Both the position numbers and the translations under genes were made by a program. This document shows, piece after piece, positions 3,514 to 43,977 of a stretch of 64,000 nt of DNA. Source of the DNA: an uncultured Candidatus Saccharibacteria bacterium (lineage in GTDB: Bacteria; Patescibacteriota; Minisyncoccia; Phycocordibacterales; UBA9973); NCBI GenBank assembly GCA_964484005.1, contig CAZADR010000002.1, positions 10,318 through 74,317 on the forward strand. The letters run 5' to 3'. The notes under the pieces were generated by a model. The model had not been told where the DNA came from. It did not search any database and was given only the letters and a program-made list of their open reading frames with translations. Position 1 is the stretch's first letter. Every line of letters begins with the position of its first letter.

Positions 3514-3622
3514 CCTTGCTTTTTAGGTTTGTTTGTGGTATACTTCCAACAAATAGCAGTTCTCTGACTTTTCAATATTCACAAAACAAACGCAACACAA
3601 AAAACATCCAAAGGAGGATGCC
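3514..3622 (+). promoter_or_regulatory. Conserved promoter plus 5-prime leader, copy A (TTGCTT-N17-TGgTATACT, long UTR ending AAGGAGGATGCCATG)
   Basis: -35 TTGCTT at 3516-3521, 17-bp spacer, extended -10 TGGTATACT at 3536-3544, SD AGGAGG 7 nt before the ATG at 3623. Near-identical copies lie at 32370-32477 and 34445-34562. Confidence 0.6.
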
Positions 3623-4405
3623 ATGAGAAAGTATTTTGTTTTCTTTGTAGTTTCACTTCTTCTGGTGGCATTCTCGATGAATGCCGACCGCCGTCGCCCC
3701 GTGCGAATCGGCTCGTCAGACTCGGTGGAGGCAATCATTGCCGTCATCTATCTGGACAAGGATGGACTTCTTGTTCAGGAAGGTGATCCTTGGCATTATT
3801 GCTGGGTGTCAATGCAGTCGATGAGGCCGTTGACCTCGGGTACGACCTTCACCTACTCGGTGCAAAAACCTGGTGCAAATGAAGGTGATTTCACCTTCAT
3901 CAGATCCAACACGGTTCAACTGCATGAGGCAGGGTTTTACACTTCGTCCAGAATATATTTCAAGGACGGGTTCTATGATACCCTTTCTGACGGAAACCGT
4001 CAGGATTGGTTGCCTGGGATCGCTGTGTTCAGGGCGGAGATCCAACCTCTCAAAGGGGTGAAGACTTCGGTCATCCATAAAATACCGGTTCGTCTCGATG
4101 AACTCAGGGTGCCTCTTGGGCCCTTACAGCAGGCCATCGTCTCAGTAGATGGTAGAAGTGTCATGCTTCTGGGAGTTTTTTCAACACCTCCTTCTGCAAT
4201 GCTTTTTCATTTTTACTCCGATGGTACATGGATGAGTAATCCCGTTGGAGTCTCTCAAAACCAGTTTGTGGTTCCAGGTGGGATGTATGGTCATGGATCT
4301 CCACTGACAGTGATGTCGGGATATCCAGATGCAGAGTGCTCTACTGTGCAGGTGGACATTCCGGATACCTCCAAGAATAAGTTGTTTCGTGAAGAAGTTG
4401 AATAG
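3623..4405 (+). CDS. Secreted hypothetical protein, GC-rich, paralog of 34563..35255
   Basis: Signal peptide MRKYFVFFVVSLLLVAFSMNA followed by DRRRPVR. Shares its N-terminus and C-terminal motif (C-S/Q-T-x-Q-V-DIP) with 34563..35255. GC content is clearly above the surroundings. Confidence 0.65.
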   Translation: MRKYFVFFVVSLLLVAFSMNADRRRPVRIGSSDSVEAIIAVIYLDKDGLLVQEGDPWHYCWVSMQSMRPLTSGTTFTYSVQKPGANEGDFTFIRSNTVQLHEAGFYTSSRIYFKDGFYDTLSDGNRQDWLPGIAVFRAEIQPLKGVKTSVIHKIPVRLDELRVPLGPLQQAIVSVDGRSVMLLGVFSTPPSAMLFHFYSDGTWMSNPVGVSQNQFVVPGGMYGHGSPLTVMSGYPDAECSTVQVDIPDTSKNKLFREEVE

Positions 4406-4428: not shown

Positions 4429-4458
4429 CAGCCCCGCGCAAGCGCGGGGCTTTTTTAT
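4429..4458 (+). terminator. Rho-independent terminator
   Basis: GCCCCGCGC-AAGC-GCGGGGC stem followed by TTTTTTATTT. Confidence 0.7.
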
Positions 4459-4517
4459 TTCTAAATTTCTCATTTTATATATTCTGTGGATAACTTTTTT
4501 TTACTTGTTTTTTTATT

Positions 4518-7370
4518 TTGTTGTATAATTTACAGCATATGATAACTACATTAAAAAGCAGGTTTTTATTATTAATATTTGTTTTTTCTTTTGTAACTTT
4601 TTTAGGAATTTCCGACAAGGCCAACGCTATGGTTGATTCTAGTGGAAATATTTTTTGTGCTAGAGAAAGTTATTGGGAATTAAACAAGACGGGTGCTGTT
4701 ACTGGAACTGGAGATGAGGGGAGTGGTTATACTACTTTAGTGCCACTACATTCTTCTTCGGATACTAGCTATGATACTATTAGCCCTTTTACGGCTGGCG
4801 CCACTCTCACATATCATCGTCGCTGGGTTGGGACTGAGCCAATATCACCAAGTACTTGGAATAGTTCTTGGACTACAGAAACCTGTACCACGGGTCCACT
4901 AGATGGAAATAAATGCTCTGTGAGTGTCAGTGGTGGTTTTTACCTTAATCCCGCATACAGCGGTGGAGGTCAGGCATATGATATTTATGGTGAGCCTGCA
5001 TGTATAGAAGATGGATATGCTGGTGTTGCTTATAGTTCACCAAATAGGATAAGTGCAGGATATACTGTAAATGCAACTGTTTCCGGGGTTGGGGGATCAC
5101 CTACACCTCTTTCTCAGTCAGTAGCTGCTAACGGCACCACAAAATTTACCTTAACTCCAAGTTCTTCTTATATTGTAAATAAAGATGATGTTACTAAAAA
5201 TTCTACTGGTTGTAATTTAGGAAACGAGGCAACCGCATGGTCTGGAAACGAGTACACTACTGGTACGATTAATGCTAATTGTACTTACACTTTTTCTTTT
5301 ACAGCTATTCCTGCTGTTACTGCTTCTTGTTCCGTCTCAAGTCCGGTGGCATCTGGGGTAAATCCAAGCATTACTTTTACCACAAATTCAAGTTCAAACA
5401 ATTGTTATGTTCGTAACGACAATATTGCCTTTGGTTTTTCTCCTCAACCTGGAACAGGAGTTTCTTCTTCCGGAACAGTCTATCAGCCTGGAGTTCAGAC
5501 AGCGGGCTCTCACCAAGGCTCAATATATTGTCAAAATTCAGCCAATACAGCAAATAGTGGCTGGCAATATTGTCCGTATACAGTGAGTGCACCAGCTATT
5601 CCCGCTACTCCCACAGGTCTTACCGCTACAGCAAGCTCCTGTGGAACTGGAACGATAAATGTATCTTGGAGTGCATCTGCTGGTGCAACAAGTTACACCC
5701 TTAAAGATGGAGCTACTGTTATTTATTCTGGAGCTTCTACTTCTTATTCTCATATTGGTCTAGTTGCAGGTTCTAGTCATAGTTACACTGTTTCTGCTTC
5801 AAACGCTGCGGGTTCATCAGCATATTCAGCTGCTGTTTCAAGAACTGCTCCAGCAGCTTGTGCTCCAACCGACGCTTGTGGTAATGGTAGTAGCTCTTTT
5901 CCTAGATTAACTGAACCGACAACTAATCCAACTGCTTGTAATCCAGGAGTGTATGCAAACTCTCCAGCTGATACCACCACCTTGGGCGCTCAAGCTTGGA
6001 ATTGGTCTTGTGGCACGGTCACTTCCTGTTCTGCTCCCAAATATGGCTGTAGAGTAACGACTGACTCAAATTATAGTCTTCCTCAATATGGACCAACTGG
6101 ACCAAACAACAATTATGGTTGCGCTGGTACTTGTGCAAACGGGGGAACAGATTATTCTACCTGTACACCTCCAGTTGGTATGTCTGGAACCTTGACCACT
6201 CCTAGCTGTACGATTGCTTCCGGGTCCAGCACTTGTACCACGACTGTCTCTTGGACAGTAACTAATCCTGTAGTAGTCGGCGGCTCTTCAGTCACTTCTT
6301 CATATCCTAGTGCTGGTACAGTCGTCGCTCCTCCAGTCAGTACTGGAACTGCAGATTCAGGTACAAAAACAGGTGTAACTATTCCATATAGTTCCAGGAC
6401 TTTCTATCTTTACAACAACAATGTTCAATTAAATACAGGCACAGCTAACGCTACCTGCGCTACAGGTTCAGCCTGGAACGGAACCATCTGTTATACAGCA
6501 CCCGCTCTTCCTGATTTGACAGCCGCTTCTACTACTCCTTCTACTGCTGTAAAAAATGAAGCCAAAACTTTTTCTTCAATCGTTACAAACATTGGAGCTG
6601 CAGATACTGGTGCATCTTTCTCAAACTTCTTTCAAGTGTGTAATGTAGGAGGAGGATGTGCAACTCCAACAGATCTAGCTCCTACTACCATGACAGCTTT
6701 GGCTGGTGGAGCGACCGGTACGGCCACCAAAGATTACACCTTTACCTCTGTCGGAACATTTTCTGTTCGAGCTTGTGCAGACAAGACAAACTCTGCTTCT
6801 CTTGGTGTAATTAACGAAGGGACCATGGAAGGCAACAACTGTGGAAATTGGGCTAATGTTACTGTTTCCGATACCCCAACTCCACCTTCCAATGAAGCCC
6901 CCGTCATCACCATCTGGGCTACTCCAACTTCTGGTACCGTGAATATTGTCAAACCTACTATTCTCTGGAGTGTCGACAATGATCCGACATCTTGTGCGGC
7001 AAGTGAAGACTGGTTAGGTAGTCGAAATTACAGTGGAGCTCAAACTCAAGAACCAGCCTTAAATCAAATTAAAACTTACCGTTACACATTAATCTGCTCC
7101 AATGCTTATGGTAGTGATGAAGCTACTGCTACGGTCGCAGTGTCTGGAACTGCCTCTGGAGTAAGTATTAGTGTAAATCCTACCTCCATCTATGCTGGAG
7201 ATTCAGCCACTCTCACTTGGTCAGGCGCAGGAGCTTGTACTTATAACTTTGATACTGGTTCTAATATTGTAACTCCAAATACGACCACTACTTACACTCT
7301 TACTTGTGATGGTGTATCTTCTAGTGCTACATTGATAGTGAAGAAGAAACCGATATTTATTGAGGATTAG
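4518..7370 (+). CDS. Large secreted Cys/Thr/Ser/Gly-rich surface protein (likely start 4539, MITTLKSRFLLL signal peptide)
   Basis: Signal peptide, low-complexity T/S/G/C-rich composition, and an extended -10 TGTTGTATAAT upstream. The C-terminal ~460 aa are identical to the product of 35386..38112. Confidence 0.7.
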   Translation: MLYNLQHMITTLKSRFLLLIFVFSFVTFLGISDKANAMVDSSGNIFCARESYWELNKTGAVTGTGDEGSGYTTLVPLHSSSDTSYDTISPFTAGATLTYHRRWVGTEPISPSTWNSSWTTETCTTGPLDGNKCSVSVSGGFYLNPAYSGGGQAYDIYGEPACIEDGYAGVAYSSPNRISAGYTVNATVSGVGGSPTPLSQSVAANGTTKFTLTPSSSYIVNKDDVTKNSTGCNLGNEATAWSGNEYTTGTINANCTYTFSFTAIPAVTASCSVSSPVASGVNPSITFTTNSSSNNCYVRNDNIAFGFSPQPGTGVSSSGTVYQPGVQTAGSHQGSIYCQNSANTANSGWQYCPYTVSAPAIPATPTGLTATASSCGTGTINVSWSASAGATSYTLKDGATVIYSGASTSYSHIGLVAGSSHSYTVSASNAAGSSAYSAAVSRTAPAACAPTDACGNGSSSFPRLTEPTTNPTACNPGVYANSPADTTTLGAQAWNWSCGTVTSCSAPKYGCRVTTDSNYSLPQYGPTGPNNNYGCAGTCANGGTDYSTCTPPVGMSGTLTTPSCTIASGSSTCTTTVSWTVTNPVVVGGSSVTSSYPSAGTVVAPPVSTGTADSGTKTGVTIPYSSRTFYLYNNNVQLNTGTANATCATGSAWNGTICYTAPALPDLTAASTTPSTAVKNEAKTFSSIVTNIGAADTGASFSNFFQVCNVGGGCATPTDLAPTTMTALAGGATGTATKDYTFTSVGTFSVRACADKTNSASLGVINEGTMEGNNCGNWANVTVSDTPTPPSNEAPVITIWATPTSGTVNIVKPTILWSVDNDPTSCAASEDWLGSRNYSGAQTQEPALNQIKTYRYTLICSNAYGSDEATATVAVSGTASGVSISVNPTSIYAGDSATLTWSGAGACTYNFDTGSNIVTPNTTTTYTLTCDGVSSSATLIVKKKPIFIED

Positions 7371-7378
7371 AAGGTTTG
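5988..7378. repeat. 1.39-kb segment identical to 36730..38120 (offset 30742)
   Basis: Protein sequences are identical from GAQAWNWSCGTV to the C-terminal IFIED. The shadow ORFs 6734..6979 and 37476..37721 are identical, and DNA identity ends right after the stop codons (gattagaag). Confidence 0.85.
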
Positions 7379-7457: not shown

Positions 7458-8030
7458 ATGATACTAGAGACCAAAAGGTTGATATTAAGAAAGCCCCAAA
7501 AGAGTGACTGGAAAGACTTAGTGGAGGGAGTGGGGGAGTATGATGTCGCCAAGATGCTTTTGATGGTGCCTCATCCTTACGGGAAAAAAGATGCAGATAC
7601 TTATATAAAAACTGTAATAAAAAGATGGGCACAAAAGGTTCAAAATGACTATACTTTTTTTATTGAGTTGAAATCCGAGAAAAAAGTTATTGGAGCTATT
7701 GGAATCCACAGAATAAACATTTTTTCTGGAACTGGAACGACGGGCTCCTGGATTAATAAAAAATATTGGAGAAATGGTTATATGACCGAGGTCAAAATTG
7801 TGTTAAATGATTTTGCCTTTAATAAATTAAAATTAAGAAGATTGAATTCAGAAGTTTTTGCTGGAAATAAAGCCTCAAACGCCACTCAGTCAAAAATGGG
7901 GTATAAGCTCGAGGGAACAATGAGAAAAGCCGCGAGGTGCAAAGCATCAGGCGAAATTCATGATGAAAATACCTATGGTTTATTAAAAGAAGATTGGAAG
8001 AGGGCCAGAGCTAAGATTGTTAAAAAATAG
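7458..8030 (+). CDS. GNAT family N-acetyltransferase (RimJ/RimL-like)
   Basis: N-terminus MILETKRLILRKPQKSDWKDL and overall GNAT-like pattern; 190 aa. Confidence 0.65.
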   Translation: MILETKRLILRKPQKSDWKDLVEGVGEYDVAKMLLMVPHPYGKKDADTYIKTVIKRWAQKVQNDYTFFIELKSEKKVIGAIGIHRINIFSGTGTTGSWINKKYWRNGYMTEVKIVLNDFAFNKLKLRRLNSEVFAGNKASNATQSKMGYKLEGTMRKAARCKASGEIHDENTYGLLKEDWKRARAKIVKK

Positions 8031-13639: not shown

Positions 13640-14437
13640 TTATCTTTTTAATTTTTCTAAAATTAGGTCGGAATTCGAATTTTCCTTAATTTCTGTATCC
13701 ACCAGAAGAGCTGGTTTTCTCTCTCTGTCCTCGATAGGCCGTTCTCTTCCTTCATTAAAAGCTGTCAGTATTTTTTCTTTTTCATGCGGTTCAAAAGTGT
13801 TACCAGTAAATCCTTTTGAATTTCTTAAGTAAACAAAAAATTTATTGAATAATTCCACTTCGTTCAATAGCGTTTTAAGTGTTGTTTCTATGTTTCTATA
13901 TGCTTCATCATGGCTACTTTTTTTAGTATATCGAGCAGAAATACCCAACTTCTTTAATTCTTCATATCTATATTCTAAGCTTAGAAGAGAAAGTTCGTAG
14001 GGAGTAGAAAGCACAACAAGATTAATATTATAATCTTGCCCTTTTAGCATTTTTGCAGTTGAGAGAGGAGCTTCTTTTGTTCTCATTGTTCCTTCTACTA
14101 TCATATTTAAGCCACGAATAGCACACTCTTGAATTAAAGATTCAATCCAAAAATTACAAGCTGGTTGGGTCATGTCAGCAGCTTCTTGGTTGTTTTCTAT
14201 TAAATATGAATAATATTTTGGATGGTATGATCTTAGGTCATCTCCGTTTATAAAAACTGCGTTTGTGTTTAATTTCAATAATTCTCTAACTAGAGTACTC
14301 TTTCCACTGCCTGGTTGACCACCCAAAATAAAAGCATCTTTTACTATTTGGGGTGAGATGTTTCCAATTATTTGAGGGATTATTTTTTCTCTCAGAATAA
14401 TATTTATTTCTTCTTCTGATAGGTCAAATTTATTCAT
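13640..14437 (-). CDS. Zeta-toxin-family P-loop kinase
   Basis: Walker A LGGQPGSGKSTL, characteristic of zeta/PezT UDP-GlcNAc kinases; 265 aa. Confidence 0.6.
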   Translation of the reverse strand: MNKFDLSEEEINIILREKIIPQIIGNISPQIVKDAFILGGQPGSGKSTLVRELLKLNTNAVFINGDDLRSYHPKYYSYLIENNQEAADMTQPACNFWIESLIQECAIRGLNMIVEGTMRTKEAPLSTAKMLKGQDYNINLVVLSTPYELSLLSLEYRYEELKKLGISARYTKKSSHDEAYRNIETTLKTLLNEVELFNKFFVYLRNSKGFTGNTFEPHEKEKILTAFNEGRERPIEDRERKPALLVDTEIKENSNSDLILEKLKR

Positions 14438-19842: not shown

Positions 19843-19847
19843 GTTAT

Positions 19848-20163
19848 CCCCCACACCTTTCATTTTATAACTTCAGATCATATTATTTTTTATGTATTAT
19901 TTATATATTCTAAAAAGCCTTAAAGACGAAAAATTATATGTTGGTTCGACCAATGATCTGAAGCGAAGACTTTCGGAACACAACAATGGACTTAATCGTT
20001 CAACAAAAGCAAGGCGTCCATTTGAACTTAGATATTATGAAGCTTGTACTAATGAAAGTGATGCCCGAACTAGAGAATATAACCTCAAGAAAGATGGAAA
20101 AGCACTTGGGCAGCTTAAAAGACGAATTTCCGAAAGTCTTAAATAAAATAAAAGGTGTGGGGG
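19848..20163. mobile_element. Miniature GIY-YIG element: 13-bp terminal inverted repeats CCCCCACACCTTT / AAAGGTGTGGGGG flanked by direct TTAT
   Basis: IRs at 19848-19860 and 20151-20163 enclose the 84-aa GIY-YIG ORF. A near-identical copy lies at 32023-32340. Confidence 0.5.
19892..20146 (+). CDS. Small GIY-YIG nuclease-family protein
   Basis: YLYIL..LYVGSTNDLKRRLSEHN matches the GIY-YIG (URI) domain; 84 aa. Confidence 0.75.
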   Translation: MYYLYILKSLKDEKLYVGSTNDLKRRLSEHNNGLNRSTKARRPFELRYYEACTNESDARTREYNLKKDGKALGQLKRRISESLK

Positions 20164-20181
20164 TTATCCACAGAAGGGTTG

Positions 20182-20480: not shown

Positions 20481-21059
20481 ATGCAGACTATTTACCAGAC
20501 AAAACTAGAATCTTTCTACGGGCAAAATAAAAGGATGCCTTCTTATACAGAGATGATGAAGCTCTTTGGTTTTAAATCCAAGAATGCCGTATTTAGAGTC
20601 GTAGAAAAACTCGTTGATGCAGGGTTTGTGACAAAAGATTATTTAGGCCGACTTGTTCCCTCTGAATCTTTTACTGAGAATGCTGCGAGTGTACCCATGC
20701 TAGGTTTTGTGACTGCTGGGTTCCCAGCTACCGTAGAAGAAGAGCTAGCTGATACTGTAAACCTCGATGATCTTTTAATAAAAAATAAACCTCTTACATA
20801 CATGCTCGAAGTAGATGGGGACTCTATGATAGATGCGCACATAGAAAAGGGCGACATGGTACTCGTAGAAAAGACAAACAGTGCCAAAGACGGAGACATC
20901 ATTATAGCTGAGGTAGACGGAGAGTTTACCATGAAGTATTTCAAAAAAAGTGGAAATAAAGTTTGGCTCGAACCCGCAAACAAAAAATATCAACCAATAT
21001 ACCCCGCGCACTCTTTAAATATAAATGCAGTCGTAAAAGCTGTAATAAGGAGATACTAA
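20481..21059 (+). CDS. lexA: LexA repressor (S24 peptidase family)
   Basis: N-terminal wHTH, Ala-Gly cleavage region VTAGFP, S24 catalytic GDSM and a Lys in the VLVEK motif. Confidence 0.85.
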   Translation: MQTIYQTKLESFYGQNKRMPSYTEMMKLFGFKSKNAVFRVVEKLVDAGFVTKDYLGRLVPSESFTENAASVPMLGFVTAGFPATVEEELADTVNLDDLLIKNKPLTYMLEVDGDSMIDAHIEKGDMVLVEKTNSAKDGDIIIAEVDGEFTMKYFKKSGNKVWLEPANKKYQPIYPAHSLNINAVVKAVIRRY

Positions 21060-29894: not shown

Positions 29895-29942
29895 TGTAAA
29901 CTTACAACCACTTCTCTTGTTAATTAATTTATAAACAAATTA

Positions 29943-30724: not shown

Positions 30725-30793
30725 TAGGCTTTCGGAAGATGGCCTACACATAAAGGTGGTTCATTCGTGAGCCACCTTTATTTTTATTAAACT

Positions 30794-31342: not shown

Positions 31343-31372
31343 AAAAGCATAATAACATATTTTTGTTTGTTT

Positions 31373-34444: not shown

Positions 34445-34562
34445 TTGCTTGACTTGCTTTTTGAGTTTGTTTGTGGTATATTTACCCCAAAGAAGCACAG
34501 TTCTCTGACTTTTCAATATTCACTAAACGAACACAACACAAATTCATCCGAAGGAGGATGCC
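34445..34562 (+). promoter_or_regulatory. Conserved promoter plus 5-prime leader, copy C
   Basis: TTGCTT (34454-34459), 17-bp spacer, TGGTATATT (34474-34482); CAGTTCTCTGACTTTTCAATATTCAC..AAC.CAACAC block shared with copy A; ends GAAGGAGGATGCCATG. Confidence 0.6.
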
Positions 34563-35255
34563 ATGCGCAAATTCGTAATGTATTTTCTTGTCGCAGTATT
34601 TCTGTGCTCGGCATTCTCTCTGAGTGCCGACAGACGACGTCCCGCGCGTAGCGGAATGCAACCGACATTTCTCACCAAGCAGACTTCTCTGTCTGTGGTG
34701 GGACCCAACGAGAAAGGGGAATACAGTGCGCCTTTTGTGGCCTGGTTCCCGGTTTCAAATGGAACAACGGTAAGTAGTTATACCGTGGATGTTAATGGTA
34801 ACAAAACTCCAATTGTGGGCGCGTCTTTCACTGTCACCGCGGAAAATGCCGATCACGGTTGGGCAATGCAACTCTGGGGACCTTTTACTGGCGGATATGC
34901 GCCAATTCCCACGAGTAGTGGTATTGTTGCTTTCCGCGTGGAATTCACGGGAAATTTCCAGACTTACAGTGTCAACGCAAGGGTTCCGGATGGAACACGT
35001 GCTACTGCTGTGGTAGATGTCTACCCCGACGGGAAGCTCTTCCTCAAGCAGTCTTACGCTGTTCTTCCGGTCGCTAGCCTCAACGGTCGAGGCCATCCTG
35101 TGGTAAATGGTTGGATCACTCCGACTCAGTATTATACTGGATCGGATGTGGTTGTTGCTGTTTGCTCCGGATTTCCGGACTCGCAGTGTCAGACCCAGGT
35201 GGTCGACATTCCGGCTCCTCAGACCAACGCAGGAAAAACGTTTAGTTTCGAATAA
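34563..35255 (+). CDS. Secreted hypothetical protein, GC-rich, paralog of 3623..4405
   Basis: Signal peptide MRKFVMYFLVAVFLCSAFSLSA followed by DRRRPAR; C-terminal GFPDSQCQTQVVDIPAP matches GYPDAECSTVQVDIPDT of the paralog. Confidence 0.65.
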   Translation: MRKFVMYFLVAVFLCSAFSLSADRRRPARSGMQPTFLTKQTSLSVVGPNEKGEYSAPFVAWFPVSNGTTVSSYTVDVNGNKTPIVGASFTVTAENADHGWAMQLWGPFTGGYAPIPTSSGIVAFRVEFTGNFQTYSVNARVPDGTRATAVVDVYPDGKLFLKQSYAVLPVASLNGRGHPVVNGWITPTQYYTGSDVVVAVCSGFPDSQCQTQVVDIPAPQTNAGKTFSFE

Positions 35256-35385: not shown

Positions 35386-38112
35386 ATGAAATCTATTATA
35401 AAAGGCAGATTTTTATTATTAATTTTTGTTTTATCATTTTTATCATTATTTGGTTTCTCTAGTCAGGCTCAGGCATTGACCATGGCACCAGATTTTAGTG
35501 TGACTTCTTTTACTTTATCTGCAGATCAAAACACTATTACTTTTACAGCAGATGGAAATTCTGGATATTTATATTCTAGTTGTGGTGCTGATGTTTTAGA
35601 GCCTCATTATGAAGGTGGTCCTTATACTTATACTCCTTATGCTATGTCTAGCGGAACTATTTCTGCAGGTTCTGTCTCAGGGACAATATCTTCTGGGGAA
35701 ATTGCAAAGTTAACTAATGGACAAACGGGCACACCTTGCGATGACCCAGCCAGGTCTTCCCCAACAGGCAATGTTGTTCCCGGTACTCCAGGAACTTTTA
35801 CAGTAACAAACAAAACCCTTAATGTTTCTAGTTTGGCCAATGGTTCATACACTCTTTCTGTTTCACTTTGTGCGACTGCCGGAGTATGTAGTGTTGCTAC
35901 TAGGGCTTTTACTATAAATAATAGAGTAACTAGTTTTAATGTTACAGCAACTGCCGGTACTGGTGGTTCCGTTTCTTCTCCTTGTTCTGTGGCGAGCGGA
36001 AATACTTCCGCAACATGTAGTAATATTAATGCTTTGTCTGGGTATTCTTTAACTCAAGCTGTAGAATTTACTCCTTCTAATTGTGCCACTGGGGGCTCTT
36101 TTTCTGGAAATGCATATACTACAGGAAATGTTAATGTTAATAATTGTAATGTAAAATTTAACTTTGCTCCTGTAGGCACAGTTTCCGGCTATCATGACGG
36201 AGCTTCAGGCACAGTTGCTTCTACTTCCTGTAACGCAAATGGCTGGGCAGCTTTTTCAACACTACCAGGAACAGACTTAACAATAGGAATAATAAGTGAT
36301 GGGGTAGCAGTGTACTATGGTCCTGCTGGGGAGTATAGAGGAGACCTGACAGGACAGTGCACAAGTGGAACTTGTGCATATAATGTGGACTTGAGTAGTC
36401 GTATTTCTTCTGGAGTAAATCACTCAATCACTGTTCAAGCTCAAAATCCTAATACTTCGGCTTGGGTGACTCTAGGTGGAAGTCCAAAGACATTAAATTG
36501 TACAGCAGTACCTCCACCACCTTGTGGAAATGGTGCCAATAATCCTCCAACTTGTACTACCTGTACTTCACCCCTTGTTTGGAACGGTAGCTCGTGTGTA
36601 GCACCTTCAACCGATGCTTGTGGTACTTATAGCGGTATTACCCCTAGACTCACTGAACCAACCACAAATCCTACTGCATGTAACCCAGGCACATATGCAA
36701 ACTCTCCAGCGGACACCGCTACTCTCGGTGCTCAAGCTTGGAATTGGTCTTGTGGCACGGTCACTTCCTGTTCTGCTCCCAAATATGGCTGTAGAGTAAC
36801 GACTGACTCAAATTATAGTCTTCCTCAATATGGACCAACTGGACCAAACAACAATTATGGTTGCGCTGGTACTTGTGCAAACGGGGGAACAGATTATTCT
36901 ACCTGTACACCTCCAGTTGGTATGTCTGGAACCTTGACCACTCCTAGCTGTACGATTGCTTCCGGGTCCAGCACTTGTACCACGACTGTCTCTTGGACAG
37001 TAACTAATCCTGTAGTAGTCGGCGGCTCTTCAGTCACTTCTTCATATCCTAGTGCTGGTACAGTCGTCGCTCCTCCAGTCAGTACTGGAACTGCAGATTC
37101 AGGTACAAAAACAGGTGTAACTATTCCATATAGTTCCAGGACTTTCTATCTTTACAACAACAATGTTCAATTAAATACAGGCACAGCTAACGCTACCTGC
37201 GCTACAGGTTCAGCCTGGAACGGAACCATCTGTTATACAGCACCCGCTCTTCCTGATTTGACAGCCGCTTCTACTACTCCTTCTACTGCTGTAAAAAATG
37301 AAGCCAAAACTTTTTCTTCAATCGTTACAAACATTGGAGCTGCAGATACTGGTGCATCTTTCTCAAACTTCTTTCAAGTGTGTAATGTAGGAGGAGGATG
37401 TGCAACTCCAACAGATCTAGCTCCTACTACCATGACAGCTTTGGCTGGTGGAGCGACCGGTACGGCCACCAAAGATTACACCTTTACCTCTGTCGGAACA
37501 TTTTCTGTTCGAGCTTGTGCAGACAAGACAAACTCTGCTTCTCTTGGTGTAATTAACGAAGGGACCATGGAAGGCAACAACTGTGGAAATTGGGCTAATG
37601 TTACTGTTTCCGATACCCCAACTCCACCTTCCAATGAAGCCCCCGTCATCACCATCTGGGCTACTCCAACTTCTGGTACCGTGAATATTGTCAAACCTAC
37701 TATTCTCTGGAGTGTCGACAATGATCCGACATCTTGTGCGGCAAGTGAAGACTGGTTAGGTAGTCGAAATTACAGTGGAGCTCAAACTCAAGAACCAGCC
37801 TTAAATCAAATTAAAACTTACCGTTACACATTAATCTGCTCCAATGCTTATGGTAGTGATGAAGCTACTGCTACGGTCGCAGTGTCTGGAACTGCCTCTG
37901 GAGTAAGTATTAGTGTAAATCCTACCTCCATCTATGCTGGAGATTCAGCCACTCTCACTTGGTCAGGCGCAGGAGCTTGTACTTATAACTTTGATACTGG
38001 TTCTAATATTGTAACTCCAAATACGACCACTACTTACACTCTTACTTGTGATGGTGTATCTTCTAGTGCTACATTGATAGTGAAGAAGAAACCGATATTT
38101 ATTGAGGATTAG
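35386..38112 (+). CDS. Large secreted Cys/Thr/Ser/Gly-rich surface protein (paralog of 4518..7370)
   Basis: Signal peptide MKSIIKGRFLLLIFVLSFLSLFGFSSQAQA, divergent N-terminal ~450 aa, C-terminal ~460 aa identical to the paralog; extended -10 TGCTGTATAAT upstream. Confidence 0.7.
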   Translation: MKSIIKGRFLLLIFVLSFLSLFGFSSQAQALTMAPDFSVTSFTLSADQNTITFTADGNSGYLYSSCGADVLEPHYEGGPYTYTPYAMSSGTISAGSVSGTISSGEIAKLTNGQTGTPCDDPARSSPTGNVVPGTPGTFTVTNKTLNVSSLANGSYTLSVSLCATAGVCSVATRAFTINNRVTSFNVTATAGTGGSVSSPCSVASGNTSATCSNINALSGYSLTQAVEFTPSNCATGGSFSGNAYTTGNVNVNNCNVKFNFAPVGTVSGYHDGASGTVASTSCNANGWAAFSTLPGTDLTIGIISDGVAVYYGPAGEYRGDLTGQCTSGTCAYNVDLSSRISSGVNHSITVQAQNPNTSAWVTLGGSPKTLNCTAVPPPPCGNGANNPPTCTTCTSPLVWNGSSCVAPSTDACGTYSGITPRLTEPTTNPTACNPGTYANSPADTATLGAQAWNWSCGTVTSCSAPKYGCRVTTDSNYSLPQYGPTGPNNNYGCAGTCANGGTDYSTCTPPVGMSGTLTTPSCTIASGSSTCTTTVSWTVTNPVVVGGSSVTSSYPSAGTVVAPPVSTGTADSGTKTGVTIPYSSRTFYLYNNNVQLNTGTANATCATGSAWNGTICYTAPALPDLTAASTTPSTAVKNEAKTFSSIVTNIGAADTGASFSNFFQVCNVGGGCATPTDLAPTTMTALAGGATGTATKDYTFTSVGTFSVRACADKTNSASLGVINEGTMEGNNCGNWANVTVSDTPTPPSNEAPVITIWATPTSGTVNIVKPTILWSVDNDPTSCAASEDWLGSRNYSGAQTQEPALNQIKTYRYTLICSNAYGSDEATATVAVSGTASGVSISVNPTSIYAGDSATLTWSGAGACTYNFDTGSNIVTPNTTTTYTLTCDGVSSSATLIVKKKPIFIED

Positions 38113-38120
38113 AAGTAAAT
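36730..38120. repeat. 1.39-kb segment identical to 5988..7378
   Basis: See 5988..7378; identity stops immediately after the shared stop codon. Confidence 0.85.
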
Positions 38121-38190
38121 AAAAAAAGTTTTTACAAAAAATCCCCACCACAATTAACATTGGTGGGGATTTTTTGGTATACTATATGTA

Positions 38191-39951
38191 ATGCAAATAA
38201 ACGAAGAACAGCTAAAGAAGTCTATTTTAGAATCTGGTCTCGTCTCTAAAACAGATTTTGAAGAAGCGCTAAAAAAAGCTGAAGAAAAAAAACAAAAAGT
38301 TGGAAATATTTTAATTTCTGAAGGAAAAATATCAGAAACAGACCTAAAACAAATGGAAGCTTTTGTTTTGGGTATTCCTTTCATTAATCTAAATAATGAA
38401 AAGATAGATGCCGCTGTTCTTTCATTGATTCCTGAGCCAATCGCCCGAAATGACAATATTGTCGCTTACAAAAAGACAGACAACAGTCTAGAAGTGGCAA
38501 TGCTCGATGTGGATGATTTGCCAGTTATTGATTTTATAAAAAAACGTTCTGGTTTAAAAATTTTACCTCGTTTGACAGATACTTCTTCCATCAAATCTGT
38601 GCTCGTCCAATATCGCCAGAGCCTAAAGGCGGAATTTCAAGATATCATTAAAAAAGAATCCGATTCGTTGGGGGATTCAATCGACGAAGAGGGAGATAAG
38701 CCTCACGAAAAATCGGAAAATGAATTGAAAGAAATGGCAGAAGATTTGCCAGTGGTAAAGATAGTAGATTCTCTTGTCTTTCATGCTATTTTACAAAATG
38801 CTTCAGACATCCATATCGAGCCAGGGGAGAAAAACCTCACCGTGCGTTACCGTATCGACGGTATCTTGCACGATGCGATGGTGCTCGATAAAAATGCTGG
38901 TCTTGGTATCACTGCGCGTATAAAAGTTTTGACCAATTTAAAACTTGATGAAAAAAGATTGCCCCAAGATGGTAGATTTAAAATAGAACAAAATGGAGAA
39001 AAGATTTCTTTTCGTGTTTCCACCTTGCCTACTTTCTTTGGAGAAAAAACAGTTATCAGAATCTTGAAAGAAAATTCTCACGGTTTTTCTTTGGAGACCC
39101 TTGGTTTTCACGGAGAAGGACTTGAGCTTATACATAACTCAATGAAATTAAAAACAGGTATGGTGCTTGCTACTGGTCCGACTGGAAGTGGAAAGACAAC
39201 GACCCTTTATACCATGTTAGATATTTTAAATAGACCTGAAGTAAATATTTCTACCGTTGAAGATCCGATAGAATATCAAATGCCGAGAGTAAACCAGACT
39301 CAAGTTAAACCAGAAATTGGATTAACTTTTGCCAATGGACTTCGTTCTCTCCTCCGACAAGATCCAGATATCGTGATGGTGGGGGAGATTCGTGACGGAG
39401 AGACGGCAGGTCTCGCCATTAATGCTTCTCTCACAGGGCACTTGGTATTGTCTACTATCCATACCAACTCAGCCGCAGGTGCCATCCCTAGACTTATAGA
39501 TATGGGAGTAGAGCCTTTTCTTATTACCGCTACCGTCAAGACAATCATTGCCCAGAGGCTCGTTCGTCGTCTTACTGAAAAAAAAGAAAAATATTTTTTA
39601 TCATCAGCTGAGATAAAAAATCTTGGAAAAATTGTAGACATAGACAGAGTGCTTACTTTCTTAAAAACAGAAAAAATAATATCAGATGACAGTACAATTG
39701 AAAAAATTCCGTTTTATAAAGCGATAAAAAATGGTGAATTTGAAGATGGGTATTCCGGTCGCATAGGTATGCATGAAGTATTAAAGGTAACATCATCTAT
39801 TAGAGAAATGATTTTAAAAGGAAGTTCTCAGGACGAGGTAGAGGCACAGGCTAAAAAAGAAGGGATGCTCACCATGCTCGAAGATGGAGTATTTCAATCC
39901 GTTTTAGGGGTGACGACACTAGAAGAAGTGTTTCGTGTGGTTTCTGAATAA
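38191..39951 (+). CDS. pilB: Type IV pilus assembly ATPase PilB / GspE family
   Basis: GspE N-terminal domain, Walker A GPTGSGKTTTLYTML, Asp box and His box regions; 586 aa. Confidence 0.85.
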   Translation: MQINEEQLKKSILESGLVSKTDFEEALKKAEEKKQKVGNILISEGKISETDLKQMEAFVLGIPFINLNNEKIDAAVLSLIPEPIARNDNIVAYKKTDNSLEVAMLDVDDLPVIDFIKKRSGLKILPRLTDTSSIKSVLVQYRQSLKAEFQDIIKKESDSLGDSIDEEGDKPHEKSENELKEMAEDLPVVKIVDSLVFHAILQNASDIHIEPGEKNLTVRYRIDGILHDAMVLDKNAGLGITARIKVLTNLKLDEKRLPQDGRFKIEQNGEKISFRVSTLPTFFGEKTVIRILKENSHGFSLETLGFHGEGLELIHNSMKLKTGMVLATGPTGSGKTTTLYTMLDILNRPEVNISTVEDPIEYQMPRVNQTQVKPEIGLTFANGLRSLLRQDPDIVMVGEIRDGETAGLAINASLTGHLVLSTIHTNSAAGAIPRLIDMGVEPFLITATVKTIIAQRLVRRLTEKKEKYFLSSAEIKNLGKIVDIDRVLTFLKTEKIISDDSTIEKIPFYKAIKNGEFEDGYSGRIGMHEVLKVTSSIREMILKGSSQDEVEAQAKKEGMLTMLEDGVFQSVLGVTTLEEVFRVVSE

Positions 39952-39958
39952 AATTAAT

Positions 39959-41179
39959 ATGCTTTTTTTATACAAAGCAAAATCAAAAACAGGAGAGATA
40001 ACTGAGGGGGAGCAAGAATCCCTTGATCGTTTTTCTTTAAATAAAGATCTCAAATCTCGTGGATTTACTCCTTTGTCGATTGTTGAAAAAAATAAAACTT
40101 TTGGTGGTAATTTTTCTATAAATTTTTCTAATATTTTTTCAAAAGTAAAGATTTCTGAACAAATTATTTTTACTAAAAATTTGAGCGGAATGATAAAAGC
40201 AGGTCTTTCCCTCAGTCGCGCTTTGTCAGTTTTGAGAAAACAAACAAAAAACCAGAAACTAAATGATATATTTTTATCTATTTCAAATGACATAAATGCA
40301 GGGGCGACTTTTTCTTCTGCTTTAGCAAAGTTTCCCGAAGTTTTTTCCAAATTATTTATATCGATGGTCAGAGCTGGTGAAGAGTCTGGAAATCTAGCTG
40401 GTTCCTTGTCTGATATAGCTTTAAACTTAGAAAAAGCAAACTCTTTAACAAAAAAAATAAAAGGAGCACTCATCTATCCAGGGGTCATAATGTCTGCTAT
40501 GGTGGTCATCGGAGTTTTGATGTTTGCTTTTGTGGTTCCTACCTTGGCAAATACTTTCAAAGAGCTCGGTGTCACACTGCCTCTCTCTACCAGAGCCCTT
40601 ATCTTTTTCGGTAACTTTTTTTCCAATCATCTCATTTTGACTTTTGCGATTATCTTATCTATTGCCTTTGGTTTCTTTATGCTTTTTCGTTCAAAATTTA
40701 TGGCAAAATATATCGATTTTGTACTTATGAAAATTCCAGTTATCGGAACCATGGCGAGAGAGTTAAATACTGCTCGTACAGCGAGAACCATCTCATCTCT
40801 TTTGTTGTCTGGGGTTTCTATTACTCGTGCAGTGGAAATCACCGAGGATGTCGTACAAAATATTTACTATAAAAAAGTTTTAAAGGAAGCTAGAATAGCG
40901 ATAGAAAAAGGAGCTCCGTTTTCTGAAGCTTTTGAGAAAAATACCAATCTTTACCCAGTGATGATGTCTGAGATGGTTCAGGTTGGAGAGGAGACAGGGA
41001 AACTTTCCGACATGTTGCTCCAAATTGCTCTTTTTTACGAAGAGGAAATTGAAAATAAAACAAGAAATCTTTCGACCATTATCGAACCAATATTGATGAT
41101 ATTTATTGGTTCAGGTGTTGGGTTTTTTGCCATCTCCATGATTTCTCCACTTTATTCAATATTAGGAAGCATTGGTTAA
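39959..41179 (+). CDS. pilC: Type IV pilus platform protein PilC / GspF family
   Basis: Two GspF repeats and polytopic membrane segments; the start is taken at the ATG at 39959, just after the pilB stop. Confidence 0.8.
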   Translation: MLFLYKAKSKTGEITEGEQESLDRFSLNKDLKSRGFTPLSIVEKNKTFGGNFSINFSNIFSKVKISEQIIFTKNLSGMIKAGLSLSRALSVLRKQTKNQKLNDIFLSISNDINAGATFSSALAKFPEVFSKLFISMVRAGEESGNLAGSLSDIALNLEKANSLTKKIKGALIYPGVIMSAMVVIGVLMFAFVVPTLANTFKELGVTLPLSTRALIFFGNFFSNHLILTFAIILSIAFGFFMLFRSKFMAKYIDFVLMKIPVIGTMARELNTARTARTISSLLLSGVSITRAVEITEDVVQNIYYKKVLKEARIAIEKGAPFSEAFEKNTNLYPVMMSEMVQVGEETGKLSDMLLQIALFYEEEIENKTRNLSTIIEPILMIFIGSGVGFFAISMISPLYSILGSIG

Positions 41180-41181
41180 TA

Positions 41182-41649
41182 ATGAAAAATTTTTATCAAA
41201 AAGGAATAACTATTTTTGAATTATTGATAGTTTTTGCTATTTTAGGAGCCATCTTAGCTGTTACTATTCCACAATTTTCAAAAATTAGAGAATTACAAGT
41301 TGTAAAATCAGCCGTGCAAGAGGTTTTGTCATCTATTGATAGGGCTAGGTCAGACTCTCTTTCTTCCTTAGATTCTTCCGAATATGGTGTGCATTTAGAG
41401 TCCGATAAGATTATAATTTTTAAAGGAATGATTTTTTCTGAAGGAGCAGGCGATAATGAAATCATAAGTATCACTTCTCCCGCGACAGTCTCCAATGTTA
41501 CTTTTGGTGGGGTCAGCGCTTCTTCTGGAGATGTTTATTTCAATCGTCTTTCGGGTTCACCTAGCAAGACAGGAACTATCACTATTTCTTCTCCAAATTA
41601 TTCAAAAATAATAACAATCTTAGCTACGGGTGTCGCAAGTGTGAATTAA
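41182..41649 (+). CDS. Prepilin-type (type IV pilin / pseudopilin) protein
   Basis: N-terminus MKNFYQKG|ITIFELLIVFAIL has a class III signal with Gly at -1 and Glu at +5. Confidence 0.7.
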   Translation: MKNFYQKGITIFELLIVFAILGAILAVTIPQFSKIRELQVVKSAVQEVLSSIDRARSDSLSSLDSSEYGVHLESDKIIIFKGMIFSEGAGDNEIISITSPATVSNVTFGGVSASSGDVYFNRLSGSPSKTGTITISSPNYSKIITILATGVASVN

Positions 41650-41652
41650 ATT

Positions 41653-42189
41653 ATGAGATTTTTTCTAAAAAATAAAAAAAGTGGCTTTACCCCCACACCT
41701 TTTGGAAAAAAAGGTGTGAGCCTACAAAGTAGGCGGGGGTTTATGGCAGTTGAGATATTGGTGGCTGTGTCAATCATCACAGCTTCTGTTTTAGCCATGA
41801 TGGCAGTCTCTCAAAAATCAGTTTTTATTTCTAGGCAGTCTTTTCATTCTGCACAAGCAGCATTCTTGTTAGAAGAGGGAGCAGAGGCAATCAGAATATT
41901 TAGAGATGATGCATGGACCAATATTTCTAGTCTTACTCCATCCACAGATTATTATCCAACTTTTTCTGGTGGGACATGGGTTTTGAGTAGTACACCAAAC
42001 ACAGTTGGTATTTTTACTCGTACTGTCAGTATCGCCAGCGTAAATCGCGACGATACCTCAAAAGATATTTCAGAAGTGGGCACAGATGATATAGACACTA
42101 AGCTGATCACTGTTACAGTATCTTGGCCGGAGGGAGGGGTGACGGTCACTAAAACATTACAGTTTTACATAATGAATATTTTCTCATAA
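41653..42189 (+). CDS. Prepilin-type protein with unusually long leader
   Basis: ...SRRG|FMAVEILVAVSII: G at -1, E at +5, preceded by about 28 residues; the real start may be a downstream codon. Confidence 0.55.
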   Translation: MRFFLKNKKSGFTPTPFGKKGVSLQSRRGFMAVEILVAVSIITASVLAMMAVSQKSVFISRQSFHSAQAAFLLEEGAEAIRIFRDDAWTNISSLTPSTDYYPTFSGGTWVLSSTPNTVGIFTRTVSIASVNRDDTSKDISEVGTDDIDTKLITVTVSWPEGGVTVTKTLQFYIMNIFS

Positions 42190-42193
42190 GAAT

Positions 42194-42700
42194 ATGAAAA
42201 AATTTTTTAAAAACAAAAAAAGAAAACAGGGCTACGCCATCTTAGAACTTCTTTTTTATATTACACTTTTTTCTATCCTTTCATTTGTATTAATCAATGC
42301 AATGATAATAATGTCTAAATCTTTTAAACAAACTGTTATCCAGACCGAGTTGATGCAGACGGGAAATCTTCTAGAAAGAATAAGTAGAGAGATAAGGGGG
42401 GCTTATGGAATAAACACTATCAGTGTAAATAGTTTGATATTGAATACCAAAGATGATGCTGATGTAAATAAAACAGTACAGTTTTTAATTTCAGGTTCAG
42501 ATTTGCAATTTTTAGAAAATGGAGTTTTGGTGGGCAACTTAAATACGCCAGATTTGCAGGTTATCGCACTTTCTTTTACGGATATAACCACCGCACAGGG
42601 CAAAGCAATCAAGGTATTTTTAACTGTAAAATCTGTAAATGATACTTCGGGTCGCACAGAAGATTTCTATAACACAGTTGTATTGCGGGGTGGTTATTAA
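42194..42700 (+). CDS. Prepilin-type protein
   Basis: MKKFFKNKKRKQG|YAILELLFYITLF has a prepilin cleavage motif with Glu at +5. Confidence 0.65.
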   Translation: MKKFFKNKKRKQGYAILELLFYITLFSILSFVLINAMIIMSKSFKQTVIQTELMQTGNLLERISREIRGAYGINTISVNSLILNTKDDADVNKTVQFLISGSDLQFLENGVLVGNLNTPDLQVIALSFTDITTAQGKAIKVFLTVKSVNDTSGRTEDFYNTVVLRGGY

Positions 42701-42714
42701 ATTATATTTTATAA

Positions 42715-43977
42715 ATGAAAAAACAAAAAGAAAGAAAAATAAATAAACAAAAAGGAGCAGCTATGTTGATATCAGTAGTATTTTTTCTTTTTATTTCTCT
42801 GGCGATAGTTTCTGGACTCGTTTCTCCGGCGGTGAGAGAATTTAAAATTTCGAGTGACTTGATAAGGTCTCGCCAAAGCTTGTTTTTATCTGAGTCAGGA
42901 ATAGAGGATGCATATTTTAGATTAAAAACAGCGAAACCAATCGCTTCTATTACTTATTTAACCCTTGGAGGAAATACTGCCACTACTACCATAACTGACT
43001 CTGGTTATAATGAAAAAACAATCAATACATTAGGAGATGTTTCTTCTAGGCAAAGAGTAAATAAAGTAGTGCTTTCTACTGGTACAGGAGTTTCTTTTAG
43101 TTATGGGGTGCAGGCGGGACTCGGGGGTTTTACTATTGGTAATGCGACAATAAATGGAAATGTTTATTCAAATGGAACAATAGAAGGGGCGAATGGCGCG
43201 ATCATAACTGGCTCTGCTTTTTCTGCAGGAGCTTCTGGGCTTATAGATAATATCGATGTCGGCCAGTCGGGAACAGGAGATGCCAGAGCCCACGTTGTTA
43301 CAAATTCTAACATTACAGGCAATCTATATTGTCAAAGTGGAACAGGGAACAATAAAGCATGTGACACATCACAAGCAGATCCTGCCACCACCAGTATGCC
43401 GATTACGGAAGCCATGTTTGATAAATGGAAAGCCGACGCAGAATTGGGTGGAATTATAACTGGAGATTTGACCATATCAACACCTTCGATTCTCGGTCCT
43501 AAAAAAATTACAGGCAATTTAGCCATAAATAGTGACGTTGTTATTTCTGGTACTCTTTATGTAGTAGGAAACATCACTACAAACAATGGAGCCCAGGTTT
43601 CTTTGGATAGTTCTTATGGCCCTACAGGCGGTATCATAGTGACCGATGGGCGTGTCACTCTTTCTAATAATGTAAATTTTGCTGGTTCTGGAAGTGAGGG
43701 TTCTTATGTTCTGTTAGCTACGACGAGCCCTTGTCCATCTGGATGCTCTGGTTTAAATGCTTTGGAGATTTTAAATAATGTGGGGGCCATCCTAGTAAGT
43801 GCGCAATACGGCACAGTGCACTTGAACAACAATGTTGCCTTAAATGAAGTGGTAGGTAATAGAATAATTGTAGATAACAGTGCTGAAGTTACCTATGTTT
43901 CTGGTTTGGCTAGCACTCTTTTTACCTCTGGGCCTTCTGGTGGATGGAGCATAAAGTCTTGGAAAGAGGTCAAATGA
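42715..43977 (+). CDS. Membrane-anchored Gly/Thr/Asn-rich protein, probable pilus-associated component
   Basis: N-terminal TM helix then repetitive G/T/N/S-rich sequence suggestive of beta-helix; last gene of the pilus cluster. Confidence 0.4.
   Translation: MKKQKERKINKQKGAAMLISVVFFLFISLAIVSGLVSPAVREFKISSDLIRSRQSLFLSESGIEDAYFRLKTAKPIASITYLTLGGNTATTTITDSGYNEKTINTLGDVSSRQRVNKVVLSTGTGVSFSYGVQAGLGGFTIGNATINGNVYSNGTIEGANGAIITGSAFSAGASGLIDNIDVGQSGTGDARAHVVTNSNITGNLYCQSGTGNNKACDTSQADPATTSMPITEAMFDKWKADAELGGIITGDLTISTPSILGPKKITGNLAINSDVVISGTLYVVGNITTNNGAQVSLDSSYGPTGGIIVTDGRVTLSNNVNFAGSGSEGSYVLLATTSPCPSGCSGLNALEILNNVGAILVSAQYGTVHLNNNVALNEVVGNRIIVDNSAEVTYVSGLASTLFTSGPSGGWSIKSWKEVK

Follow-up and report, generated by a model that had tools for sequence, protein, structure and literature searches.

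Evidence for recent gene conversion between the 3' halves of two large secreted-protein genes in an uncultured Candidatus Saccharibacteria bacterium

In a 64,000-nucleotide (nt) stretch of DNA from an uncultured Candidatus Saccharibacteria bacterium (contig CAZADR010000002.1 of assembly GCA_964484005.1; hereafter the window), two genes for large modular proteins end in the same 1.39 kb of sequence. Each is the second gene of a duplicated two-gene cassette, in which a gene for a small secreted protein is followed by one for a Cys-rich modular protein of ~900 amino acids (aa), and the two cassettes lie in direct orientation, 30,742 bp apart. We consider it probable (about 0.85) that the cassettes are old paralogs and that the 3' half of one large gene was recently replaced with a copy of the other's by interlocus gene conversion, in a family with concerted evolution of the C-terminal halves and swapping of modules in the N-terminal halves.

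Results

An identical tract with a sharp border inside diverged homologous sequence

Large gene 1 (4539..7370, + strand; 943 aa, identical to database protein P0003) and large gene 2 (35386..38112, + strand; 908 aa, P0001) were compared position by position at an offset of 30,742. The copies at 5988..7373 and 36730..38115 (both +) showed no mismatches over 1,386 nt, and each comprised the last 460 codons of its gene, the stop codon (ending at 7370 in gene 1 and at 38112 in gene 2) and 3 further nt. An earlier note on this DNA had equated 5988-7378 with 36730-38120; the identity stood, but the end was placed 5 nt too far, because 7374-7378 mismatch throughout. The abrupt end that it described just after the stop codon was indeed seen, 3 nt beyond both stops. 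Its statement that the encoded proteins are identical over about 460 aa also agreed with our comparison, in which the last 460 aa matched (493 of 500 when counted from the start of the shared modules). The embedded antisense open reading frames (ORFs) are identical as well, trivially, because the DNA itself is identical.

Self-BLASTN of the window, a check that the note had proposed, gave homology between 5863-7373 and 36605-38115, with 97.9% identity over 1,514 nt; no further partial copies of the tract were found in the window by this search. All 33 differences in the alignment were confined to the first 125 nt, where the longest identical run was 17 nt. This flank (5863..5987 in copy 1 and 36605..36729 in copy 2, both +), delimited by self-BLASTN and codon alignment, forms the start of a module designated C1 and would be old sequence that escaped conversion. 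Its synonymous divergence (dS) was 1.2-1.35 and its nonsynonymous divergence (dN) 0.09-0.17 by the Nei-Gojobori method. The changes were thus mostly silent, in keeping with the earlier description of ~120 nt of homologous sequence rich in silent differences. Downstream of the junction, by comparison, there were 0 changes in ~350 synonymous sites, and the chance of 1,386 consecutive matches at the divergence of the flank is ~1e-178. What we see is a discrete tract with a sharp border inside diverged homologous sequence, the pattern by which interlocus gene conversion is recognized. Purifying selection at the codon level was considered as a separate candidate and rejected, since it cannot yield 0 silent changes in 350 sites beside a dS of 1.3.

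Alignment of the 3' flanks showed that those of the two large genes are unrelated and locus-specific, and that in a relative, described below, paralogy reaches the same limit a few nt past the stop codon. On these alignments we take the abrupt 3' end to be an old limit of paralogy, not necessarily the end of a conversion tract.

Paralogs resemble each other more than orthologs in the C-terminal half

The relatives compared were two contigs from JGI metagenome 3300044712, one bearing the pilus locus (L001, protein P0002) and one the GNAT locus (L002, P0005), and two more pilus-locus genes from other samples (L009/P0004 and L008/P0006). The GNAT locus of the window is defined by a GNAT acetyltransferase gene downstream of cassette 1 (7458..8030, +; identified with Pfam and the same neighbor in L002), and the pilus locus by a type IV pilus operon directly downstream of cassette 2 (38191..43977, +; Pfam T2SSE/MshEN). 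In JGI metagenome 3300044712 both loci have the same neighbors as in the window. A scan of GTDB genomes gave one contig of the same species and four distant contigs, and a metagenome scan with an alignment of the C-terminal halves yielded nothing closer than distant relatives (36-49% identity), and no additional genome in which both loci were present.

The small secreted-protein genes that open cassette 1 (3623..4405, +; 260 aa) and cassette 2 (34563..35255, +; 230 aa) served as an internal control, as did the promoter/leader regions that precede them. Paralogous small proteins were 26-32% identical (26% for the window pair), and orthologs 62-66%: small protein 1 was 62% identical to its ortholog in L002, and small protein 2 was 66% identical to its ortholog in L001 versus 26-28% to paralogs. 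The promoter/leader regions, located by self-BLASTN and upstream alignment at 3514..3622 (+) in cassette 1 and 34453..34562 (+) in cassette 2, are ~77% identical to each other, within a range of 74-77% for all copies. Because the small genes are more alike between orthologs than between paralogs, the duplication must be old and the sequence adjoining the large genes has diverged normally.

The C-terminal halves of the large genes behave in the opposite way. Between the window paralogs, nucleotide identity was 100% and dS was 0; between the relative's paralogs, identity was 76-98% (85% overall) and dS was 0.51; and between window and relative at the same locus, identity was 34-84% and dS was 1.1-1.5. 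Overall, C-terminal halves from different genomes were 65-78% identical. Paralogs within a genome are thus closer than orthologs between genomes, despite the greater age of the duplication. Since both loci predate the split of the genomes and paralog divergence is nevertheless lower than ortholog divergence, conversion must have followed the split. In addition, both window copies have a CARDB-like module where all four relatives have a second 'YLYNN' immunoglobulin (Ig)-like module, a replacement that, to judge from the alignment, evidently took place in one window copy and was passed to the other.

The earlier note had offered recent gene conversion or segmental duplication as alternatives. 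The former is borne out by the greater likeness of paralogs than of orthologs, by the sharp 5' edge beside saturated synonymous divergence and by the normal divergence of the small genes. A recent segmental duplication is unsupported, because full-length genes occupy the same two loci in the relative, which makes the duplication an old one.

N-terminal halves are mosaics, and breakpoints recur in C1

Alignment of six proteins yielded a series of modules: signal peptide, N1, N2 (types a and b), N3 (types a and b), N4 (an fn3 domain or a Cys linker), C1-C5 and a tail. N2 and N3 are both of type a in window gene 1 and both of type b in window gene 2; P0004 joins N2b to N3a, and P0006 joins N2a to N3b, so that all four combinations of type are present. 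The N-terminal halves of the window genes can barely be aligned (27-53% nt identity). According to the earlier note, these ~450 aa evolve freely; we find them instead to be mosaics of interchangeable modules exchanged between loci and strains.

The comparison of strains for recombinant genes that had been suggested was informative in the case of L009, which is a mosaic of pilus-locus and GNAT-locus sequence. Its pilus-locus gene is 95-100% identical to the pilus-locus gene of L001 in codon columns 0-200 and 530-806, and 98-100% identical to the GNAT-locus gene of L002 in columns 298-530; columns 200-297 resemble neither. We read this pattern as an independent interlocus conversion that affected the N-terminal half too, with further sequence contributed by a third source. 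The downstream breakpoint (columns 530-538) lies at most 20 codons from the junction in the window (column 549), both being in the first part of C1. A third junction, seen at the protein level only, is provided by P0007, in which two internal copies of C1 are identical from 'YANSPADT' on and different before it. The three independent junctions, in the window, L009 and P0007, thus fall within residues ~22-41 of C1.

In L008, the pilus locus bears a small gene of the GNAT type (409-1293), which is 44-45% identical to that type versus 25-30% to the pilus type, and its large gene has N2 and fn3 modules of the GNAT type. From these sequences, cassettes seem to be transferred from one locus to the other, entire or in large part.

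Alternative explanations for the repeat

One could suppose that both loci separately acquired the same foreign C-terminal allele by natural transformation. The window does encode ComEC, a ComM-like ATPase, RecJ and type IV pili, third-source alleles do enter these genes, as the N2 module of L009 matching neither sister-strain paralog indicates, and the CARDB-like module of the window copies is missing from the four relatives. We nevertheless give this parallel replacement only a slight chance, since it needs two events with the 5' junction the same to the nucleotide. Moreover, no identical or nearly identical external sequence was found, the best non-self matches being P0006 (86% over only 23% of the query) and P0002 (61% over the full length). 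A single import and then an internal conversion would be simpler, and would be a variant of the gene conversion that we favor.

A very improbable alternative is a recent partial duplication, in which the 1.39-kb 3' segment was newly copied onto an unrelated gene without overwriting a homologous half. The 125 nt on the 5' side of the junction argue against it, being homologous, in frame and saturated at silent sites, as do the signal peptides, promoters, terminators and upstream small genes, which are paralogous too. Full-length members with the same C-terminal architecture occupy both of the relative's loci, and the segment has neither flanking target-site duplications nor mobile-element genes. 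These observations outweigh the two that such a duplication would explain, namely the abrupt ends of identity on both sides and the near-unalignable N-terminal halves. Insertion of a mobile element was rejected, there being no repeats and, among the ORFs scanned, no transposase.

Perfect identity over 1.39 kb is also the expected result of an assembly artefact, in which only one gene really carries the 3' half, or distinct halves were collapsed or copied by an assembler or by a polisher using multi-mapped reads, and the window's own 103,760-bp NCBI contig spans the repeat beyond the resolution of short reads. Support for the copy number came from contigs of the same organism in other assemblies (MEGAHIT k141, SPAdes k55 and Logan k31, from several runs), which were collected using small gene 2, small gene 1, the GNAT gene, PilB and the shared 460-aa product. 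Small protein 2 was present on ten contigs of independent assemblies. Nearly all of the collected contigs were 100% identical to the window, the exceptions being L032, with a single mismatch, and L034, with a 1-nt gap, in each case upstream of the large gene.

Contigs entering the repeat on the pilus side ended at 36870 in MEGAHIT assemblies (L018 and L020; 141 nt into the repeat), at 36784 in SPAdes (L007, which equals L021, from GCA_964390475.1; 55 nt in) and at 36759 in Logan (L019 and L022; 30 nt in). On the GNAT side, they ended at 6128 in MEGAHIT (L028 and L030; 141 nt in) and at 6017 in Logan (L029 and L031; 30 nt in). Exit contigs in Logan started at 7344 on the GNAT side (L037 and L038) and at 38086 on the pilus side (L041), in each case 30 nt before the repeat end at 7373 or 38115. 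At each of the four borders, the break therefore lies k or k-1 nt within the repeat. MEGAHIT contigs starting at 5988/36730 run through the repeat either into PilB (L026/L040) or into GNAT (L027, the same contig being present in Logan), and both cross it with 1386/1386 identity. At k = 141, a single unbranched unitig with two entries and two exits implies two copies without assembled differences, and the same picture at three k values in several runs implies a true two-copy repeat bounded by these very nucleotides. The outcome expected of a non-reciprocal event, with the donor kept and both copies of the same sequence, is found in the window and, at each exit, in the independent assemblies. 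Together with the full-length orthologs of both loci in relatives, this leaves an assembly artefact, which the earlier note had named as a possible refutation and which we tested indirectly through these independent contigs, next to no probability; it is essentially excluded. A practical consequence is that a perfect 1.39-kb repeat split the recovered short-read contigs at all four borders, and genes of this kind will therefore often be truncated or missing in metagenome-assembled genomes.

A dedicated diversification device, whether a diversity-generating retroelement, a shufflon or invertase, or silent-cassette antigenic variation, is scarcely credible: module combinations do vary between strains and loci, breakpoints cluster in one module and small GIY-YIG nuclease genes lie close by, but the mismatches adjoining the tract are of all substitution types and not adenine-specific, the tract has no flanking inverted repeats, and all assemblies of the population share one arrangement. 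The window ORFs of at least 150 aa that were either scanned or assigned through annotated orthologs included no reverse transcriptase, integrase, invertase or transposase. A diversity-generating retroelement was rejected on the lack of a reverse transcriptase among the scanned ORFs and on the nature of the repeat, which is 1.39 kb long and perfect rather than ~100 nt and A-mutated. A silent-cassette system was rejected in turn: neither copy is a silent donor, because both are complete, full-length genes with a signal peptide and with their own promoter-like site and terminator.

Modules of the large proteins

The start of large gene 1 is most likely ATG 4539, which matches P0003, rather than TTG 4518. 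Its product consists of a Sec signal peptide, a unique N1, N2a, N3a, fn3 and the Cys-rich C1, followed by an Ig-like module, the CARDB-like module, two further Ig-like modules and the tail KKKPIFIED. The product of large gene 2 has a signal peptide, N1A, N2b, N3b and a Cys linker ahead of the C-terminal 460 aa that it has in common with gene 1. Both proteins have a Sec-type signal peptide and are rich in Cys, Thr, Ser and Gly. Pfam gave weak matches to CARDB and fn3, under the gathering cut-off, of which the fn3 assignment was confirmed through many homologs; when homologs were sought with the gene 1 N-terminal half, generic fn3 matches dominated and little was added. Even at E = 10, no NCBIfam model fitted the small proteins, C1 or the tail motif. 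NCBIfam also gave nothing for the large proteins, in which no anchor motif of known type was found, and C1 and the small proteins had no Pfam match either.

An AlphaFold model of the shared 500 aa contained three confident beta-sandwich modules, with a predicted local distance difference test score (pLDDT) of 80-93, which match tandem Ig domains of titin and of cell-adhesion molecules. The large proteins thus have the layout of modular beta-sandwich adhesins, with a secretion signal and tandem domains of the Ig-like, fn3 and CARDB types. In the same model, C1 and the CARDB-like region had pLDDT values below 50, and C1 modeled alone with a dedicated alignment reached 46; we claim no fold for either region.

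C1 is a Cys-rich module of ~100 aa, encoded at 5872-6174 and 36610-36912 of the window, with the motifs PRLTEPT, AQAWNWSCG and PKYGC. It was found in only 35 clusters among 1.84 billion representatives, at 47-93% identity across very different architectures and in 1-5 copies per protein. One of its carriers is P0012, a 574-aa protein encoded outside the window, in which a pilin-like hydrophobic N terminus is combined with an fn3+C1 pair 77-85% identical to that of gene 1; the modules are therefore common also to pilin-like proteins.

The tail KKKPIFIED, encoded by the last nine codons (7344-7370 and 38086-38112), fits the C-terminal motif K-x-P-x-[FY]-x-E-[NQD]-COOH, which is common to many large secreted proteins from Candidate Phyla Radiation (CPR) bacteria, among them P0007, P0014, P0021, P0022 and P0024. 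A second group of large secreted CPR proteins terminates in ...SNEG/SKEQ. On sequence grounds, the K-x-P-x-[FY]-x-E-[NQD] tail may be an uncharacterized sorting or anchoring signal. In their C1, 'YLYNN' Ig-like, CARDB and Flg_new-type (PF18998) modules and in this tail, the two window proteins resemble other large Cys-rich CPR proteins, homologs labeled Nomurabacteria, Paceibacterota or Minisyncoccia. That larger family is uncurated, with no NCBIfam model and weak Pfam matches.

Expression signals and chromosomal setting of the cassettes

The ~110-nt promoter plus A/C-rich leader ahead of each small gene ends in AAGGAGGATGCCATG and is conserved in relatives; the leader has no Rfam match. A third copy lies at 32370-32481, upstream of a radical-SAM gene. 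Terminator scans located a hairpin at 4430..4451 (+), between small gene 1 and large gene 1, with a paralog at 35293-35312. It is followed by a promoter-like site for large gene 1 at 4500..4529 (+; -10 element TATAAT), the paralog of which is at 35349-35377. The -10 element ends 9 nt before the ATG of the large gene and is conserved in all six loci compared (the two of the window, L001, L002, L008 and L009). A conserved element, GTGTTGATAACTT...TGTATAAT (4490-4541 and 35340-35388 in the window), stands upstream of every large gene and ends 9 nt before its ATG, with no Shine-Dalgarno sequence. The distance of 9 nt and the lack of a Shine-Dalgarno sequence suggest that the mRNAs of the large genes are leaderless, as we think they probably are, and the GTGTTGATAACTT...TGTATAAT element is possibly a shared operator. 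A palindrome in the self-BLASTN marks a locus-specific terminator hairpin after large gene 2 (38135..38176, +), which is conserved at the pilus locus of relatives and is unrelated to the sequence after gene 1.

Cassette 1 is flanked by SET-domain and histidine-kinase genes on one side and by the GNAT gene on the other. Cassette 2 is followed by genes for a PilB-like ATPase, a PilC-like platform protein, three prepilin-like proteins and a 420-aa PilX-like protein; this operon adjoins the cassette in the same arrangement in L001, L008 and L009, and the translations show prepilin N termini. The window as a whole has 36.7% G+C and ordinary chromosomal genes, including those for a histidine kinase, a SET-domain protein, GNAT, MetK, AdoHcyase, RNase Y, ClpP, trigger factor, H+-PPase, NusA, TIM, PGK, RecJ, ComEC, SHMT, ArgRS and IleRS. 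Its nearest named relatives at the DNA level are 'Candidatus Nomurabacteria' genomes, and the GTDB representative is deposited under the label 'uncultured Candidatus Saccharibacteria'; with the labels of the protein homologs, this places the organism in the CPR/Patescibacteria. Rfam and tRNA scans of the window gave no match.

Several further features of the window were noted. They include a zeta-toxin-like kinase (13640-14437, - strand), a ComM-like Mg-chelatase ATPase (18292-19842), a LexA-like S24 peptidase (20481-21059) and ComEC (49219-50739), which, combined with RecJ and the pilus operon, suggest that the organism is able to undergo natural transformation and recombination. Three small GIY-YIG (URI-domain) nuclease genes encode 84-92 aa (19843-20173, 32018-32350 and, on the - strand, 29943-30221); two of them lie within copies of a 330-nt repeat that are 85% identical, and the third copy is inverted and ~69% identical. 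Two of the three are inside a variable island of ~4.5 kb (~29900-34450), between NusA and cassette 2, that is missing at the same place in L001. The island carries genes for GIY-YIG, a methyltransferase, HicA/HicB-like proteins, a second GIY-YIG and a radical-SAM protein, and a 213-aa ORF. Its methyltransferase segment (81% identical) sits upstream of the GNAT-locus cassette in the relative (L002 4555-5527), and the island therefore adjoins different cassette copies in the two genomes. L030 (1-1180; ERZ27247817, same population) departs from the window upstream of position 2554 and encodes a SET-DegT/DnrJ/EryC1 fusion-like product of 372 aa instead of the 162-aa SET protein; this divergence is strain-level variation adjoining cassette 1. 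Finally, in an IleRS-like gene (57267-60773; 1,168 aa), a histidine-phosphatase domain (His_Phos_1) interrupts the catalytic domain, occupying residues 506-669 between its two halves.

Discussion

The mechanism that we propose is a recent non-reciprocal homologous recombination, in which the 3' half of one large gene overwrote that of the other. On the 5' side, the tract would have ended at codon 484 of gene 1 and 442 of gene 2, within C1, the first stretch in which the otherwise dissimilar genes align; on the 3' side, identity would simply extend to the old limit of paralogy, at the stop codon plus 3 nt. The event would be one of a series that keeps the C-terminal 'stalk' halves in concert and swaps modules in the N-terminal halves. 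It may be of the RecA type; of recombination-related genes, only those for RecJ, the ComM-like ATPase and ComEC were seen in the window, and recA lies outside it. Crossover products would go unseen, as the 30.7 kb between the copies holds genes that we assume to be essential: with NusA, RNase Y, ClpP, trigger factor and MetK between direct repeats, a deletion by crossover would probably be lethal, leaving conversion products alone visible.

Several points weigh against this explanation, or limit it. Homology is absent past the stop codon plus 3 nt, which rules out a classical two-sided conversion with its end at that point; the conversion either stopped short of it, where the copies already matched perfectly, or was one-sided. 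The data do not distinguish donor from recipient. Bubble popping in short-read graphs could mask one or two true differences between the copies in every assembly. L001 and L002 are not proven to come from one genome, although the dS argument is valid either way; judging by where the contigs end, the two may be separated by about 29 kb. The Cys-rich C1 and the CARDB-like region resist structure modeling, and the surface-adhesin role and the link to pili are read only from signal peptides, domain types and conserved gene order.

With that basis in mind, the large proteins are probably secreted, surface-exposed and adhesin-like. Their N-terminal modules would confer binding specificity, and the shared C-terminal string of Ig-like modules, with its tail K-K-K-P-I-F-I-E-[DN], would act as a stalk or anchor. 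Two observations suggest a link to type IV pili, the position of a cassette directly upstream of pilB in four genomes (the window, L001, L008 and L009) and the fn3+C1 pair in P0012, with its pilin-like N terminus; the other cassette is not linked to pili, and a terminator and a separate promoter lie between large gene 2 and pilB. According to PMC11623550, symbiotic interactions of Patescibacteria are predicted to be helped by type IV pili, a role under experimental test in Saccharibacteria.

The closest analogue of the gene pair, which it closely mirrors as far as sequence comparison goes, is found in the 3' segments of babA/babB and homA/homB in H. pylori. These are two or three expressed paralogs at fixed loci, with 3' segments that show intrastrain but not interstrain similarity, and RecA-dependent interlocus conversion between them gives rise to chimeric genes in which 5' or middle parts carry the differences in binding (the review PMC3960876, which cites Pride & Blaser 2002). 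Here, too, paralogs at fixed loci are concerted in the 3' half and differ in the 5' half. The H. pylori proteins are, however, beta-barrel outer-membrane proteins, whereas those described here are Cys-rich strings of Ig-like, fn3 and CARDB modules in a CPR organism that is probably monoderm. The variable part here is made of discrete interchangeable modules, and each gene is paired with a gene for a small secreted protein. Phase-variable repeats were not seen here.

Non-reciprocal recombination between related surface-protein sequences also underlies variation at Neisseria pilE/pilS, Borrelia vlsE and Mycoplasma genitalium MgPa/MgPar, and the silent-cassette variation of Neisseria is tied to type IV pili. 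The present pair differs from systems of the pilE/pilS type in that both partners are complete and bear promoters, and in that it is the constant half that is converted, with a homogenizing rather than a diversifying result; no silent-donor array or special cis element was found in the window. Dispersed paralogs such as tufA/tufB and rRNA operons are kept identical or nearly so by gene conversion, while their flanks diverge, but in those cases the whole gene is homogenized, under selection for one function. The long perfect identity beside diverged flanks is a shared feature; the homogenization of the 3' half alone, with the 5' halves kept different, is not. A literature search found no paper on this protein family, nor on gene conversion, concerted evolution or the exchange of modules between paralogs in CPR bacteria. 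Gene conversion between surface-protein paralogs is nonetheless a familiar route in bacterial surface-protein families, and the present case is real but fairly ordinary.

It is doubtful, though conceivable, that the two loci form a module-shuffling system for the host-attachment proteins of an episymbiotic CPR bacterium. C1 would then serve as a recombination hinge at the DNA level, joining the constant stalk or anchor half to N-terminal binding modules from the other locus, from pilin-like genes or from transformed DNA. If that were true, homogenization of the 3' half would be maintained since it supplies the homology for shuffling of modules.

The CPR or Patescibacteria account for a large part of bacterial diversity, and every cultivated member lives attached to other microbes (PMC11623550). 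Host recognition by these bacteria is poorly understood, with their large Cys-rich extracellular proteins as candidates for the role. The present genes indicate that such CPR proteins can belong to small families of paralogs whose evolution resembles that of adhesins in well-studied pathogens. With one half kept constant by conversion and the other assembled from exchangeable modules, the pattern also indicates which parts of the proteins are likely to bear specificity.

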